DNA of 64,000 bases from an uncultured Rhodospirillaceae bacterium. GTDB lineage: Bacteria; Pseudomonadota; Alphaproteobacteria; Rhodospirillales; UBA2165. The stretch is taken from positions 4,941-68,940 of the forward strand of contig CAZUGT010000204.1 in NCBI GenBank assembly GCA_964620095.1, in the 5' to 3' direction. The notes beneath the pieces were generated by a model. The model did no database searches. It saw only the letters and a list, made by a program, of their open reading frames with translations, and was not told the origin of the DNA. Shown one piece after another: positions 2,302 through 45,004 of this stretch (position 1 is its first letter; every line of letters begins with the position of its first letter). A program made the translations under genes and the position numbers.

Positions 2302-2347
2302 ACTTCGATCAAATGTCGGTCTCGGTGGTTGCGAGCCCCCGCAACCA
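2302..2347 (+). repeat. 46-bp direct repeat, copy 1: ACTTCGATCAAATGTCGGTCTCGGTGGTTGCGAGCCCCCGCAACCA
   Basis: Identical to 44959-45004 except for one base (A2311 versus G44968). It contains the hairpin GGTTGCG-AGCCCC-CGCAACC and ends in GCCCCCGCAACCA, the same 13-mer that ends the tRNA-Met fragment at 16976-16988. Confidence 0.9.
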
Positions 2348-2560
2348 AAGAAGCCCCGTTAATCCAATAGGATAGCGGGGTTTTCTTTTGCTGCGGCCTT
2401 GGTTCATTCCGAAACCGTAAGCATACCGTAAGCGGAGCCAATGCACCGCATGGCCCTGCTGGGACCCCGGGTGACACCGTCGCGTCGCGAGCGCCGAGGG
2501 CTGGAACGAGGCGGTGCGCCGTCGTCGCGGGAACACGTTGTAGCTTGTCGAGAGCAGTGT
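2336..2560 (+). repeat. Diverged repeat of about 225 bp, copy A (partner at 16977-17215)
   Basis: By-eye alignment: CCCCCGCAACCA, then a hairpin terminator, then the perfectly shared blocks CCGTAAGCATACCGTAAGCGGAG, GCGTCGCGAGCG and CGGTGCGCCGTCGTCGC. These are separated by substitutions and small indels. Confidence 0.75.
2354..2389 (+). terminator. Rho-independent-type hairpin plus T-run
   Basis: Stem CCCCGTTA/TAGCGGGG (2354-2380) is followed by TTTTCTTTT. It sits immediately after the tRNA-like acceptor-end core, as a tRNA gene terminator would. Confidence 0.5.
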
Positions 2561-2650
2561 CGACTTTCCCATCTCGTTGGGACCGACGACGACATTCAGG
2601 CCGTCGCCGATGTCGTCAACAGGGTGCGGCAGCCATCCTCATCATCGATC
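2540..2650 (-). pseudogene. 5' fragment of a P-loop NTPase gene with an intact Walker A
   Basis: Minus-strand translation ...PVDDIGDGLNVVVGPNEMGKSTLLSTSYNVF... The LNVVVGPNExGKSTLL pattern is typical of the N-termini of SMC/YhaN/OLD-like ATPases. No Walker B follows and the frame runs into the terminator hairpin. Confidence 0.45.
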
Positions 2651-2708
2651 GGGAACGGTTTTCTCGCGAACTTCACCGTGGATTGGTTTGGACAGATTGC
2701 GCCAACCT

Positions 2709-2825
2709 GACCCATATGGCTATCGCCGCATCACGGCGCTGCTACGCGCCAAAGGCTGGCATGTGAACGCCAAGCGGGTGCGATGCATCTGGCGGCGGGA
2801 GGGGCTGAAGGTCCCCGGGAAGCAA
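2709..2825 (+). mobile_element. IS3-family-type transposase fragment (HTH segment only)
   Basis: DPYGYRRITALLRAKGWHVNAKRVRCIWRREGLKVPGKQ is the conserved segment that precedes the DDE/rve core in IS3-type OrfB proteins, but no catalytic core follows. An out-of-frame rve-like scrap (ILIIDRERFSRELHRGL) lies just upstream, around 2600-2700. Confidence 0.6.
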
Positions 2826-3180
2826 TACAGACGGTCATCAATCCACGGCAATCAGTTGCAGCGGAGTAGCTGAATTTTGCCGCCAAAGTTTGGAGGTGCT
2901 GAACAATTCTGGCACACCTAGAATTTTAGTGCCGCGATAAGCAACCCGTTCGCGTGCTTGTGTCCGCACTTGGCTAATTGGGGACGCTTGGCAGAATACG
3001 GTTGAAGGTCGGCTTCTAGCCAGAAGCGGACATAACTTAACGCTTAGGACCCATGCTGTTCCGCTGGTTGTGCGGCCATCGTTTGGCTAGACTGAGCACT
3101 GCACGAGAACCCGCCGTAAACACACGAGGCTGGCACGATGCCGCCAATTATTTGCCCCTATCCTCAGGCCGAGGGATACA

Positions 3181-42153: not shown

Positions 42154-42163
42154 GGAGTGGACG

Positions 42164-43168
42164 ATGACCGAGATAAAGCTCCAGCAAGTTGTGAAATATT
42201 TCGATGATGTCGAGGTCATCAAAAGTTTCGACCTGGAAATTCACGATGGGGAGTTTGTCGTTCTCGTTGGTCCTTCGGGCTGCGGGAAGTCCACGCTGCT
42301 GCGGATCATTGCCGGTCTGGAGGATGTGACGAGCGGCAGTATCTATTTGGATGGCGTCGATGTCACCGAAATGCCGCCGGCGGCCCGCGGCCTGGCCATG
42401 GTATTTCAATCCTATGCGCTCTACCCGCACATGACCGTGCGCGAGAATATGGCGTTCCCCCTAAGGATGAAGGGTGTTGACCGTGCAGAGCAAGAGCGGC
42501 GGGTCGAGCACGCGGCAGGAATTTTGAACTTGTCGGAATACTTGGAGAGAAAACCCTCTCAGCTCTCCGGCGGGCAGCGCCAGCGCGTGGCTATCGGCCG
42601 GGCAATCGTGCGCGAGCCGGTTGCATTCCTGTTTGATGAACCATTGTCCAATCTTGATGCGGCCTTGCGGGGAAATATGAGATTGGAAATCACCGAACTC
42701 CACCAGAAGTTAAAATCAACGATGATATTCGTGACCCATGATCAGGTTGAGGCCATGACAATGGCTGACAAAATCGTGGTCTTGCAGGATGGAGTGATTG
42801 AGCAGGTCGGTACGCCGCTCGAGCTTTACCGTACGCCCCGCAACATGTTTGTCGCCGGATTTATCGGTTCTCCGAAGATAAATTTAATTGCCGGCCGGGA
42901 GGCGGAAAAACAAAACGCGCAGACGATCGGCGTTCGGCCGGAACATATTGAAATTTCCACGACCGAAGGCGCTTGGCAGGGGACGGTAGGCGTATCGGAA
43001 CAACTTGGATTCGAGACGTTCCTGCACGTCGAATGCCCGCAATTGGAACAAACCCTCACGGTTCGTACCGATGGTGAGCGTGAGATAGCGCCCGGTGAGA
43101 ATGTTTATTTGACGCCGATCAGCGAAAAGATAAATCGTTTCGATGCCAATGGGCTGACCATTGGCTAG
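42164..43168 (+). CDS. Sugar ABC transporter ATP-binding protein (UgpC/MalK type)
   Basis: [17 protein letters not shown] and [12 protein letters not shown] close paralogue of 30874-31881. Confidence 0.9.
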
Positions 43169-43190
43169 GCCCCAAAGGACGACAGACCCA

Positions 43191-44672
43191 ATGACAAGGC
43201 CCAATATTCTTTGGATCTGCACTGACCAGCAAAGATGGGACACCTTGTCCTGCTTGGGATTCAAGGGGGCGGTGACACCCAATATAGACCGTCTGGCTTC
43301 CTGCGGCGTCATTTTCAAGAATGCCTATTGCCAAAGCCCAATATGCACGCCGAGCCGCGCATCGTTCCTAACCGGCATGTATCCGATCGCGACCCAGGTG
43401 CATCGCAACGGCAACATCGGCTTCCCGGAGCATTTAACGCTCGTTACGAAACTTTTCGAACTCGCCGGCTATCACAATGGTTTGATCGGCAAGCTGCATT
43501 TGTCCCGCACGGAGGGGATGAGCGAGGTGCGCCCCGATGACGGCTACCATGAGTTTTACCCAAAAGGGCCGGTTGGCGGCCCAGGCAGTGACTATTGTAC
43601 ATGGCTGGAGGAGAGAGGCTTTGATCCAAAGAGACTTTCCGAACCGCGCCGGGGAATTTGCGATCCAAGCGTGGATACCGAATATAGCCAGACCACGTGG
43701 TCATGGGAGCGCGCACTCAGCTTCATCGAAAACAACGTGGATAAACCCTGGTTGTTGTCGGTGAACGTGTTCGATCCGCATCCACCCTTCGATCCTCCAG
43801 CTGAATATATGGCCAAGTTCGATCCGGTACATATGCCGGAAGCGAAATTCAGGCTCTCGGACATCGAACACCAAAAACGGTTTGCGGGTGTGGATCAGCA
43901 GGCAAGGCAAGCGGTCATTCCGGATGAATTTTCACGACTCGAAAATGTTCGACCCGCGAATGCCCGGGATGACGATGACGGGTTCATGGGAACCCATGAT
44001 ACGCCGCCGAGCCGCTACAACGTCCAGGAAATCCGCGCCGCCTATCAAGCCATGATTCTGCTGCTCGATGACATGGTGGGAAGTCTGCTGCAAAAGCTGG
44101 AAGAAACAGAACTCCTTGAAAATACGATCATCGTCTTTACCAGCGATCATGGCGAAATGCTCGGAGATCACGGCCTGCTCTACAAGGGGTGCCGTTTCTA
44201 TGAAGGCCTCGTCCATGTGCCGCTGATAATCTCCGTTCCGGATTCGGGGCTGCGCGGGTCGGCGTCGGAGGCTCTTGTCGAACTCGTCGATATCGCGCCG
44301 ACGCTACTCGACCTAGTGGGGATCGATATCCCTCAAAATATGCAGGGAAAATCCTTGGGCCCGTTACTGAGGGGTGAAGCGCCTCTCGATTTTCACAAGC
44401 CATATGTATTGTCGGAATATTTCGATTGTTTGCGCTTTCCGGGCTCGGTCGGCTCGCGGGCCAGCATGTATTTTGATGGACGGCACAAGCTGAACATTTA
44501 TCACGACGCGGGCGAAGGAGAGCTGTTCGACTTGGAATCCGATCCCGACGAGTTTTCGGACCGGTGGCATGATCCGGACTATGCCGAGATCAAATCCGAG
44601 CTTCTTCTGCGGCATTTCGGCGCAATAATGAAAGTGTCCGGCTCCGGCCCCGAGCGCAGCCACGACTTTTAA
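43191..44672 (+). CDS. Type I (Cys-type) sulfatase with no signal peptide
   Basis: MTRPNILWICTDQQR, signature ICTPSRASFLTG, and TSDHGEMLGDHG. The track start at 43161 is a TTG, so I preferred the ATG at 43191. Confidence 0.9.
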   Translation: MTRPNILWICTDQQRWDTLSCLGFKGAVTPNIDRLASCGVIFKNAYCQSPICTPSRASFLTGMYPIATQVHRNGNIGFPEHLTLVTKLFELAGYHNGLIGKLHLSRTEGMSEVRPDDGYHEFYPKGPVGGPGSDYCTWLEERGFDPKRLSEPRRGICDPSVDTEYSQTTWSWERALSFIENNVDKPWLLSVNVFDPHPPFDPPAEYMAKFDPVHMPEAKFRLSDIEHQKRFAGVDQQARQAVIPDEFSRLENVRPANARDDDDGFMGTHDTPPSRYNVQEIRAAYQAMILLLDDMVGSLLQKLEETELLENTIIVFTSDHGEMLGDHGLLYKGCRFYEGLVHVPLIISVPDSGLRGSASEALVELVDIAPTLLDLVGIDIPQNMQGKSLGPLLRGEAPLDFHKPYVLSEYFDCLRFPGSVGSRASMYFDGRHKLNIYHDAGEGELFDLESDPDEFSDRWHDPDYAEIKSELLLRHFGAIMKVSGSGPERSHDF

Positions 44673-44958
44673 TCGATTTCATCCGAGACCATTGAAAATT
44701 TTACCGGGTATCGGGGTGAACAGTCCTGCGACCGTACTTGGAAAGGGTATCAATCGCAGTGTTCCAACCAACGTCCCATGCCAGATGGGCACCATTGGGA
44801 AACGTAGCGCCCGCGTCGCTGGCGAAGTCGCCGAAAGGGGTTACGAGGTAGAATCGTTTAGGCCAATCGCGTAAGGAGTAGCAAACCTTAGCCAGTGGCG
44901 GGCTACGTACTTACATATTCCTCTTGTAGATCAAGAGGTTGCGACGGCTCAGACCACG

Positions 44959-45004
44959 ACTTCGATCGAATGTCGGTCTCGGTGGTTGCGAGCCCCCGCA
45001 ACCA
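44959..45004 (+). repeat. 46-bp direct repeat, copy 2 (partner at 2302-2347)
   Basis: One mismatch to copy 1. Here the hairpin extends to 10 bp (GGTGGTTGCG-AGCCCC-CGCAACCACC), and it is flanked on the right by a serine-recombinase remnant. Confidence 0.9.

Follow-up and report, generated by a model that had tools for sequence, protein, structure and literature searches.

Two 46-bp repeats in an uncultured Rhodospirillaceae genome are probably junctions of large serine recombinase elements at the initiator tRNA-Met 3' end

How do two nearly identical direct repeats, 42.7 kb apart and both closing with the last bases of a tRNA gene, come to lie in the genome of an uncultured Rhodospirillaceae bacterium? 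The repeats, here called sites A and C, and a tRNA-derived site B between them lie on a stretch of 64,000 nucleotides, the window, which covers C204:4941-68940. Contig C204 belongs to a 3.8-Mb metagenome-assembled genome of 358 contigs with an estimated contamination of 6.5%, whose closest public relatives are labelled Rhodospirillales or Alphaproteobacteria and come in many cases from sponges. A preliminary description of the DNA had taken the repeats for att-type junctions at a tRNA-Met 3' end. We find this well founded and consider it probable that the 46-mer is the attR-type junction of elements driven by a large serine recombinase (LSR), which would insert at the 3' end of the initiator tRNA-Met (tRNA-fMet) gene or at a copy of that end.

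The two 46-mers, at 2302-2347 and 44959-45004, differ at a single base (A2311 versus G44968), and the pair extends with weaker similarity to 80 nt (2268-2347 versus 44925-45004, 81%). These are the only two copies that BLAST finds in the whole 3.8-Mb assembly (E = 1.5e-17 for the pair), which speaks against both chance and a high-copy repeat. From left to right, the 46-mer consists of ACTTCGATCAA, ATGTCGGTCTCGG (the arm X'), TGGTTGCG, AGCCCC and CGCAACCA, the latter being the final 8 nt of tRNA-fMet. TGGTTGCG and CGCAACCA are inverted repeats that form an 8-bp stem with a 6-nt loop (-9.5 kcal/mol, z = -2.7). The hairpin noted earlier is thus real, while its supposed oddity for an att site disappears, as it is the inner inverted repeat of a larger dyad. 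As already described, a common 13-mer, GCCCCCGCAACCA, closes both 46-mers and also the 45-nt tRNA-fMet 3' half that forms site B. The intact partner was expected outside the window, where ARAGORN indeed detects no intact tRNA. It is found at C119:848-924, is preceded by 23S and 5S rRNA, ends in the 13-mer and matches the half at site B in 45 of 46 positions. A partial tRNA-fMet 5' end of ~20 nt (GCGCGGGGTGGAGCAGTCCG) is located ~90 nt upstream of this gene, at C119:760-790.

The other side of the junction lies on different contigs. When compared with the genome by BLAST, the 46-mer yields two additional partial matches on the opposite strand, of which the one on C19 reads tRNA-fMet half-CCCCGCAACCA-CCGAGACCGACAT and the one on C24 degenerate tRNA end-CTCCGCAACCA-CCGAGACCGACAT. 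CCGAGACCGACAT, the arm X, is the exact reverse complement of X'. At C19:116-173, this tRNA half-core-X junction abuts the 3' end of an intact LSR gene (C19:120-1799, minus strand) encoding 560 aa with the motif YARYSSDQQ and the domains Resolvase (PF00239, 3.5e-23), Recombinase (PF07508, 3.6e-23) and Zn_ribbon_recom (PF13408, 6.2e-11). The C19 protein therefore has the resolvase catalytic, recombinase and zinc ribbon domains that define an LSR system; the window holds only a truncated relative. This junction is the fourth type, tRNA half-core-recombinase side, that the preliminary description had listed as missing, and pseudo-tRNA versions of it exist on C24 and in a sister genome. Inspection by eye of C19:120-25916 revealed a [NiFe]-hydrogenase cluster (large and small subunits, HypD/E/F-like proteins) and metal ABC (ATP-binding cassette) transporter genes, which would be cargo of the element. 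No relaxase was seen beside the C19 LSR; other loci, such as L052, do have a TrwC-like relaxase motif immediately upstream of the LSR gene.

Joining the attR arm of the window to the attL arm of C19 produces a perfect 21-6-21 dyad of 48 bp (-27.9 kcal/mol, z = -13). The attP sites of serine integrases typically measure ~48 bp and have dyad symmetry, and our attP, a reconstruction made by joining the two arms, lies within the corresponding range of 40-50 bp, with inverted half-sites and a short central crossover region. In the mechanism that we propose, the circular element would carry this ~48-bp attP (ATGTCGGTCTCGG-TGGTTGCG-AGCCCC-CGCAACCA-CCGAGACCGACAT), composed of two perfect 21-bp inverted half-sites and a 6-bp spacer, while the predicted attB would comprise the T-arm and acceptor 3' strand of tRNA-fMet (...GGTTCAAATCCTGCCCC-CGCAACCA) together with the start of its terminator. 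An exchange of strands within the spacer's C-run would then yield, on one side, an attL of the form tRNA...CCCC-CGCAACCA-CCGAGACCGACAT, beyond which the recombinase gene reads towards the site, and here the element's own copy of CGCAACCA would restore the tRNA. On the other side it would yield an attR of the form element arm-ATGTCGGTCTCGG-TGGTTGCG-AGCCCC-CGCAACCA, followed by the tRNA terminator. Site A would accordingly be an attR of which an 80-nt scar is left, joined to a module of terminator and flank; at site C, an attR would be fused to the recombinase end of another, related LSR element that has the same core, this end being made up of an arm Y and a truncated LSR gene; and site B, a tRNA-fMet half with terminator and flank, would be an unoccupied target-like site. 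We infer the catalytic role of the LSR, the exact crossover dinucleotide and the order of events from the sequences.

The adjacency of recombinase and arm is a general feature of this LSR. It recurs in the sister genomes G001 and G006, and a homologue scan with one genome per species returned 78 loci with LSR relatives, of which the 68 close ones were used for counting arms, with up to 3 mismatches to CCGAGACCGACAT allowed. At 62 of these 68 loci the LSR 3' end abuts the X arm, fused to ...CCCCGC[A/T]ACCA or a near variant. The left partner of core-X is an intact tRNA-Met(CAT) in 11 cases, a tRNA-fMet 3' half or fragment in 31 and a Y'-core in 3; the remaining left partners mostly share the C-run alone. 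Most of the relatives have 75-94% protein identity, and their genomes are labelled Rhodospirillales, Paracoccaceae, Defluviicoccus, Thalassobaculaceae, Candidatus Binatia, Acidobacteria and Pseudomonadales (the last at 56%). For loci L032-L099, the range of 75-94% spans these labels, with many of the sequences coming from sponge metagenomes. Such likeness across phyla suggests recent transfer between them or, alternatively, mis-binning of a mobile contig. A more distant example, from a cultured strain, is plasmid pYP1 of Ketogulonicigenium vulgare Y25, on which 5S rRNA, an intact tRNA-fMet, the core, a variant of the arm and a 65%-identical LSR follow one another. On this plasmid (NC_014621.1; L179/L182), the attL lies at ~235.2 kb beside rrn-tRNA-fMet and an attR-like site at 30826-30866; the latter adjoins a type I restriction gene and a retron-type HNH gene, and the implied element measures ~64 kb.

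The attR side is similarly distributed. A 35-mer spanning X' to the CCA end is present in 6 of 6 congeners, with 1-3 copies each, and recurs at 0-4 mismatches in other genomes and in metagenomes. Among the latter, it was found in 34 contigs from marine and soil samples in a search that allowed variation only at the four degenerate positions of the pattern. Twelve other genomes contain 0-6 copies each of the 21-mer, compared to one match for the reversed-pattern control in the whole set of 12. Complete genomes contain attL and attR oriented as expected and separated by 28-128 kb (G042, G051 twice, G052), and G006 has such a pair at ~52 kb. Natural variants narrow down the exchange. Some elements have CGCTACCA in place of CGCAACCA beside X, and the tRNA at their attL then ends with the T of the element; an attR from such a genome carries TGGTAGCG to the left of the spacer and the host's CGCAACCA to its right. 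This A/T polymorphism of the arms confines the exchange to nGCCCCCGC, where the central CC is the putative crossover dinucleotide.

A comparison of sister species provides an empty and an occupied site. In G002, 16.8 kb matching C24:5990-22769 (93%) run through a pseudo-tRNA-core-Y junction into the DNA that here lies to the right of site C. In our genome, by contrast, this block ends on C24 in pseudo-tRNA-core-X, with the last ~90 nt of an LSR gene left, and at site C the X' arm precedes core-Y. With an empty site in G002 against an attL on C24 and an attR at C, the comparison shows that an exchange at the core joined X-type arms to both halves, with the order here being attR...attL.

Several observations weigh against our interpretation. 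The last 141 nt of C204 are identical to the first 141 nt of C24, and via this overlap the attR at C would lie ~50 kb upstream of its matching attL on C24, so that a simple single insertion does not suffice and two elements or a later rearrangement must be assumed. No attL occurs between B and C, so that the left end of the element that terminates at C must have disappeared. Several complete genomes contain an attL for which no partner attR exists within 2 mismatches. The contiguous attP has 0 matches in JGI metagenome contigs and IMG/VR, unlike the attR 35-mer with its 34 contigs, and no recombination directionality factor was identified. Finally, the near-invariance of the 35-mer across 51 distinct attR-type sites from genomes and metagenomes is inflated, as these were selected by their similarity to it; the 30 nt to its left are moderately conserved, and the right flank is unconserved and usually a terminator (T4+ run in 34 of 51).

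We also tried to connect the two arrangements in one step. Upstream of A, C204:6857-6954 has a homologous counterpart in G002, located immediately beside the 16.8-kb block. The order in G002 is a-b-c, compared to a-[A..C]-c-...-b here; no single insertion, deletion or circular permutation converts one into the other, and the a|b junction in G002 has no core site. A 6.2-kb segment, C204:635-6856, whose right part is window 1-1916 and which includes an NMT1-like binding-protein gene (638-1597), is absent from G002, where its flanks overlap by 9 nt, hinting at an insertion with a short duplication.

At site C, an X-type right end meets an element of a second kind (Table 1). Copies of its arm exist in G004 (91% identity over 179 nt) and G006 (76% over 155 nt); the DNA to the left of the arm is absent from congeners. 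Directly after the core follows Y, which resembles X (CCnnnACCGAnnT) and overlaps the stop of a truncated LSR gene reading ...LILDGLRERLMAPELVKEF...KKLDGCRSSV*. Over 62 aa, this fragment shares 38% of its residues with the genome's intact LSR (E = 8e-6), although Pfam does not detect it, nor any domain in other short open reading frames (ORFs) overlapping A, B, C and the flank F described below. In two genomes of other genera, core-Y is followed by an LSR ORF of at least 504 aa that reads towards the site and ends ...YRSSVKV*, and in one of the two, G199, the left partner is an intact tRNA-fMet; by this comparison, Y is a genuine recombinase-side arm. The earlier view of site C was thus right about the abutting LSR remnant, while its attP-like site is not a simple attP, since an X right end is fused here to a Y recombinase end and a sister genome lacks the X arm at this position.

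A block of 19.6 kb, located behind Y, shares 92-94% identity with G001, G003 and G004 and, up to the contig ends, with G002 and G005; G006 lacks it. Its end in G003 is a Y'-core-X junction, beyond which comes an intact X-type LSR. We considered that the DNA right of C might be conserved chromosome and rejected this, as Y and Y' arms bound the block in G003 and G002 has it at another location; its behaviour is that of a second element or of what is left of one. A Y'-core-T2 site at C24:5530-5565 was likewise discarded as the right end of the Y element, because the homology to G001 and G003 ends at C204:~69510. The left partner of core-Y is an X' arm in G001, G003 and G004, with diverged arm sequences, and a 73-nt degenerate tRNA-like end in G002. 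A second core-Y with a degenerate tRNA-like left partner is present at G003:C56:166880-166901 (L197), beside the X'-core-Y on C42 of that genome. In our assembly, a second 73-nt degenerate tRNA-like end lies ~690 nt past the window end at C204:69628-69740, with a core and a T2-like terminator and no element arm, and is by its structure an unoccupied target-type site directly after the sulfatase/sulfotransferase block.

Site A is a scar in which an arm remnant-X'-core is joined to the T2-F module, a terminator hairpin (T2) with a flank (F), and then to an insertion sequence (IS) remnant. Its likeness to the arms of other copies is limited to the last ~80 nt. In keeping with the earlier view of A as a hybrid junction, an element arm remnant meets a tRNA-fMet terminator and flank, with T2-F after A being homologous to that after B (81.7% identity over 208 nt). 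The formal partner type of A, tRNA half-core-X with an intact LSR, exists on C19, and in this fragmented assembly the two may or may not belong to one element. Site B carries no element arm and, as had been noted, resembles an unoccupied target; whatever the origin of T2-F, B has the form of an LSR target. The 45-nt half begins at the same base in B, on C19 and at eight sites in G006, of which five continue into T2 and three into the X arm, and at least 3 different left flanks precede it. This common start behind varied left flanks points to another type of island, which duplicates 45 nt of the tRNA, and site B may be a scar of this type, probably one with a tyrosine integrase. Our genome has 3 diverged T2-F copies (A, B and C24:5566-). 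In the complete sister genome G006, T2 and the beginning of the flank are also located behind the intact rrn tRNA-fMet, and the T2 copies there lead into mutually homologous DNA that extends over kilobases. Rather than simply native flank, T2-F may thus be the arm of the 45-nt islands on their tRNA-proximal side, and its repeat CCGTAAGC-N3-CCGTAAGC would fit arm-type binding sites.

Table 1. Coordinates of the att-type sites and adjoining features in the window
Feature	Position	Strand	Details
Site A, attR-type scar	2268..2347	+	Element arm remnant of ~34 nt 2268-2301; spacer 2302-2312; X' ATGTCGGTCTCGG 2313-2325
Site A, inner parts		+	Inner repeat TGGTTGCG 2326-2333; putative crossover spacer AGCCCC 2334-2339; CGCAACCA 2340-2347
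T2 terminator hairpin and flank F, copy A	2348..2560	+	Contains CCGTAAGC-N3-CCGTAAGC
IS3-family transposase remnant (HTH_21)	2577..2873	+	Pfam PF13276, E = 2.8e-9; directly after flank F
Site B, 45-nt tRNA-fMet 3' half (anticodon loop to CCA)	16944..16988	+	Structure resembling an unoccupied LSR target
T2 terminator and flank F, copy B	16989..17195	+
Site C, full right-end X-type arm and 46-mer	44826..45004	+	Arm 44826-44958; X' 44970-44982; inner repeat 44983-44990
Site C, inner parts		+	Spacer 44991-44996; CGCAACCA 44997-45004
Outer half-site Y CCTATACCGAACTC (45005-45018), overlapping the stop of the truncated Y-type LSR gene	45005..45263	-	ORF 45006-45263
Y-arm segment	45264..64000, continuing ~570 nt past the window to C204:~69510	+	Dehydrogenase, Crp regulator, sulfatase/sulfotransferase operon

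The interval from A to C is heterogeneous over its 42.7 kb. Congeners hold only patches of it and, as the preliminary description had asked of related genomes, most of it is missing there. The segment 3235-12579 matches G006 at 74%, near a tRNA half-T2 site; it is a transporter/oxygenase cassette whose G006 counterpart lies inverted ~7 kb downstream of that site (3844769), and it may travel with the T2-F module. The segment 13525-16619 matches G005 at 86-88%, while 27306-36313 matches only G006 (94%) and G004 (96%, to a contig end at ~35110), and the part from 36.5 to 44.8 kb has no close relative. The GC content varies between 0.51 and 0.62, and IS3 and IS630 remnants are present. A 175-nt piece at 27125-27301, judged by eye to be the C-terminus of an IS630-type transposase, has a 93% copy on C119, at least 7 copies in G004 and 4 in G006. 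Given the shared polarity of A and C and the lack of an attL in between, the interval is a pile of decayed accessory segments rather than one element. That the region records several integration events, as had been suggested, thus holds; that A and C bracket a single element does not. At least 6 core-bearing sites follow each other in one orientation over ~110 kb (A, B and C in the window, C204:69628-69740 and two on C24), an array that may have arisen by repeated integration, with accessory modules such as transporters and sulfatases piling up between the sites.

Could a different process have produced these repeats? The 3' ends of tRNAs are the usual targets of tyrosine integrases, so that A and C might be the direct repeats of a classical tRNA island, formed when an island-borne copy of the tRNA 3' end recombines with the gene. 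The 45-nt tRNA halves at B and at five sites in G006 are of a length typical for such islands, from which they probably derive, and by eye a possible integrase remnant follows the intact tRNA on C119, although Pfam found nothing there. A and C, however, share just 13 nt with the tRNA, compared to the long copy of 45 nt at B; their site forms a dyad of 21-6-21, a serine recombinase is the arm's invariant neighbour (62 of 68 loci), and the ORFs flanking A, B or C contain no tyrosine integrase domain. We consider this origin improbable: a 13-nt core, set in a ~48-bp dyad beside a serine recombinase, points to serine-integrase chemistry and not to the classical tyrosine-integrase tRNA island. It is also improbable that the 42.7 kb constitute one excisable unit, looped out by recombination between the 46-mers as a circle with four transporter modules. 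The repeats are direct, identical in 45 of 46 positions and enclose accessory DNA, as this would entail, but both junctions have the element arm on their left, and serine integrases recombine attP with attB or attL with attR, not attR with attR. Moreover, the interval starts with target-side flank, holds the target-like site B and IS remnants, and is composed of parts that differ in their distribution among congeners, while forty-five identical bases are a poor substrate for homologous recombination.

Two further explanations appear very unlikely to us. The 46-mer folds, is always intergenic and is usually followed by a terminator, and might on these grounds be a dispersed repeat of the REP (repetitive extragenic palindromic) or RIME (Rhizobium-specific intergenic mosaic element) kind, or else a small structured RNA whose CCA end is tRNA-like, in both cases without a connection to recombination. 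Yet repeats of the former kind occur in tens to hundreds of intergenic copies, compared to two here and 0-6 elsewhere, the stem exhibits strict invariance without compensatory changes, and the arm is physically linked to LSR genes. A small-RNA identity was dropped for want of an Rfam match, with nothing at gathering score across the window and nothing at E <= 5 in 44600-45100. An assembly artefact, in which unrelated strains were joined at a short repeat, would be conceivable in view of the 358 contigs, the 6.5% estimated contamination and the 141-nt overlaps at contig ends. The 46-nt repeat is, however, shorter than these overlaps, three congeners whose assemblies are independent (G001, G003, G004) share the X'-core-Y junction of C, and G002 and G006 have arm-X'-core-T2 junctions that resemble site A. 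An attR-type junction of LSR elements thus remains the reading that we favour.

The proposed system shares much with known large serine integrases, such as phiC31, Bxb1, TP901-1, SPbeta SprA, SCCmec CcrAB and Tn5397 TndX, which likewise have Resolvase, Recombinase and zinc ribbon domains and a long C-terminal region, an attP dyad of ~48 bp, a short identity between attP and attB, and the integrase gene at the end of the element beside the site. It differs in that the target is formed by the last bases of the initiator tRNA gene, and not by a protein-coding gene, that the tRNA stays intact through an exact copy of its final 8 nt brought in by the element, and that the inferred attP half-sites are perfectly symmetric over 21 bp. 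With islands, as well as integrative and conjugative elements (ICEs), that depend on tyrosine integrases, such as P4-like islands and Mesorhizobium ICEs, it has in common the tRNA 3' target, partial tRNA copies and stacked, decaying islands; one integrase of the Mesorhizobium tripartite ICEs targets tRNA-Met. The recombinase superfamily and the site architecture are different, however, with 13 nt shared with the tRNA. A further parallel exists with the tycheposons of Prochlorococcus, cargo elements that stack at tRNA genes, with partial tRNAs and fragmented integrases scattered in islands; 910 of 937 use tyrosine recombinases and a minority large serine recombinases (bioRxiv 10.1101/2020.12.28.424599). 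Stacking and decay are alike in both, whereas the host lineage and the elements differ. PLSDB contains, for megaplasmids and chromids of Ketogulonicigenium, Paracoccus, Komagataeibacter and Sphingobium, genes with the generic annotation 'recombinase family protein'. Their identity to our LSR is 59-66%, and their half-sites have the form CTGATAACGACAC as opposed to CCGAGACCGACAT. A limited literature search yielded no description of an LSR that targets tRNA-fMet, and the family, while widespread and apparently a member of the known class of large serine integrases, appears to be undescribed.

With these results, an unexplained repeat becomes a defined recombination system, with predicted sites of ~48 bp and an identified candidate enzyme. 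Its target is conserved across many bacteria, and near-identical recombinases occur under Alphaproteobacteria, Binatia, Acidobacteria and Pseudomonadales labels, many of them from sponges; together, the conserved target and the wide spread of the recombinase make the system a plausible broad-host-range vehicle for metabolic cargo, including hydrogenase, transporters and sulfatases. More tentatively, and with doubts that we regard as outweighing the case for it, one could imagine that a single LSR family (75-94% identity) moves cargo between phyla in sponge and soil communities via the near-universal acceptor end of initiator tRNA-Met, that each insertion recreates a usable core, so that arrays build up, and that junctions of different elements recombine with each other, relocating the segments between them. 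If true, the latter would explain the differing order of the 16.8-kb and 19.6-kb blocks in sister species. The LSR could further be considered as an integration tool for bacteria in which genetic engineering is difficult, and for the annotation of these fragmented genomes the 35-mer can be read as a marker of island boundaries. For the bacterium itself, this means that the transporter and sulfatase modules between and beside the repeats of the window are horizontally acquired, patchily distributed DNA and not part of its core genome.

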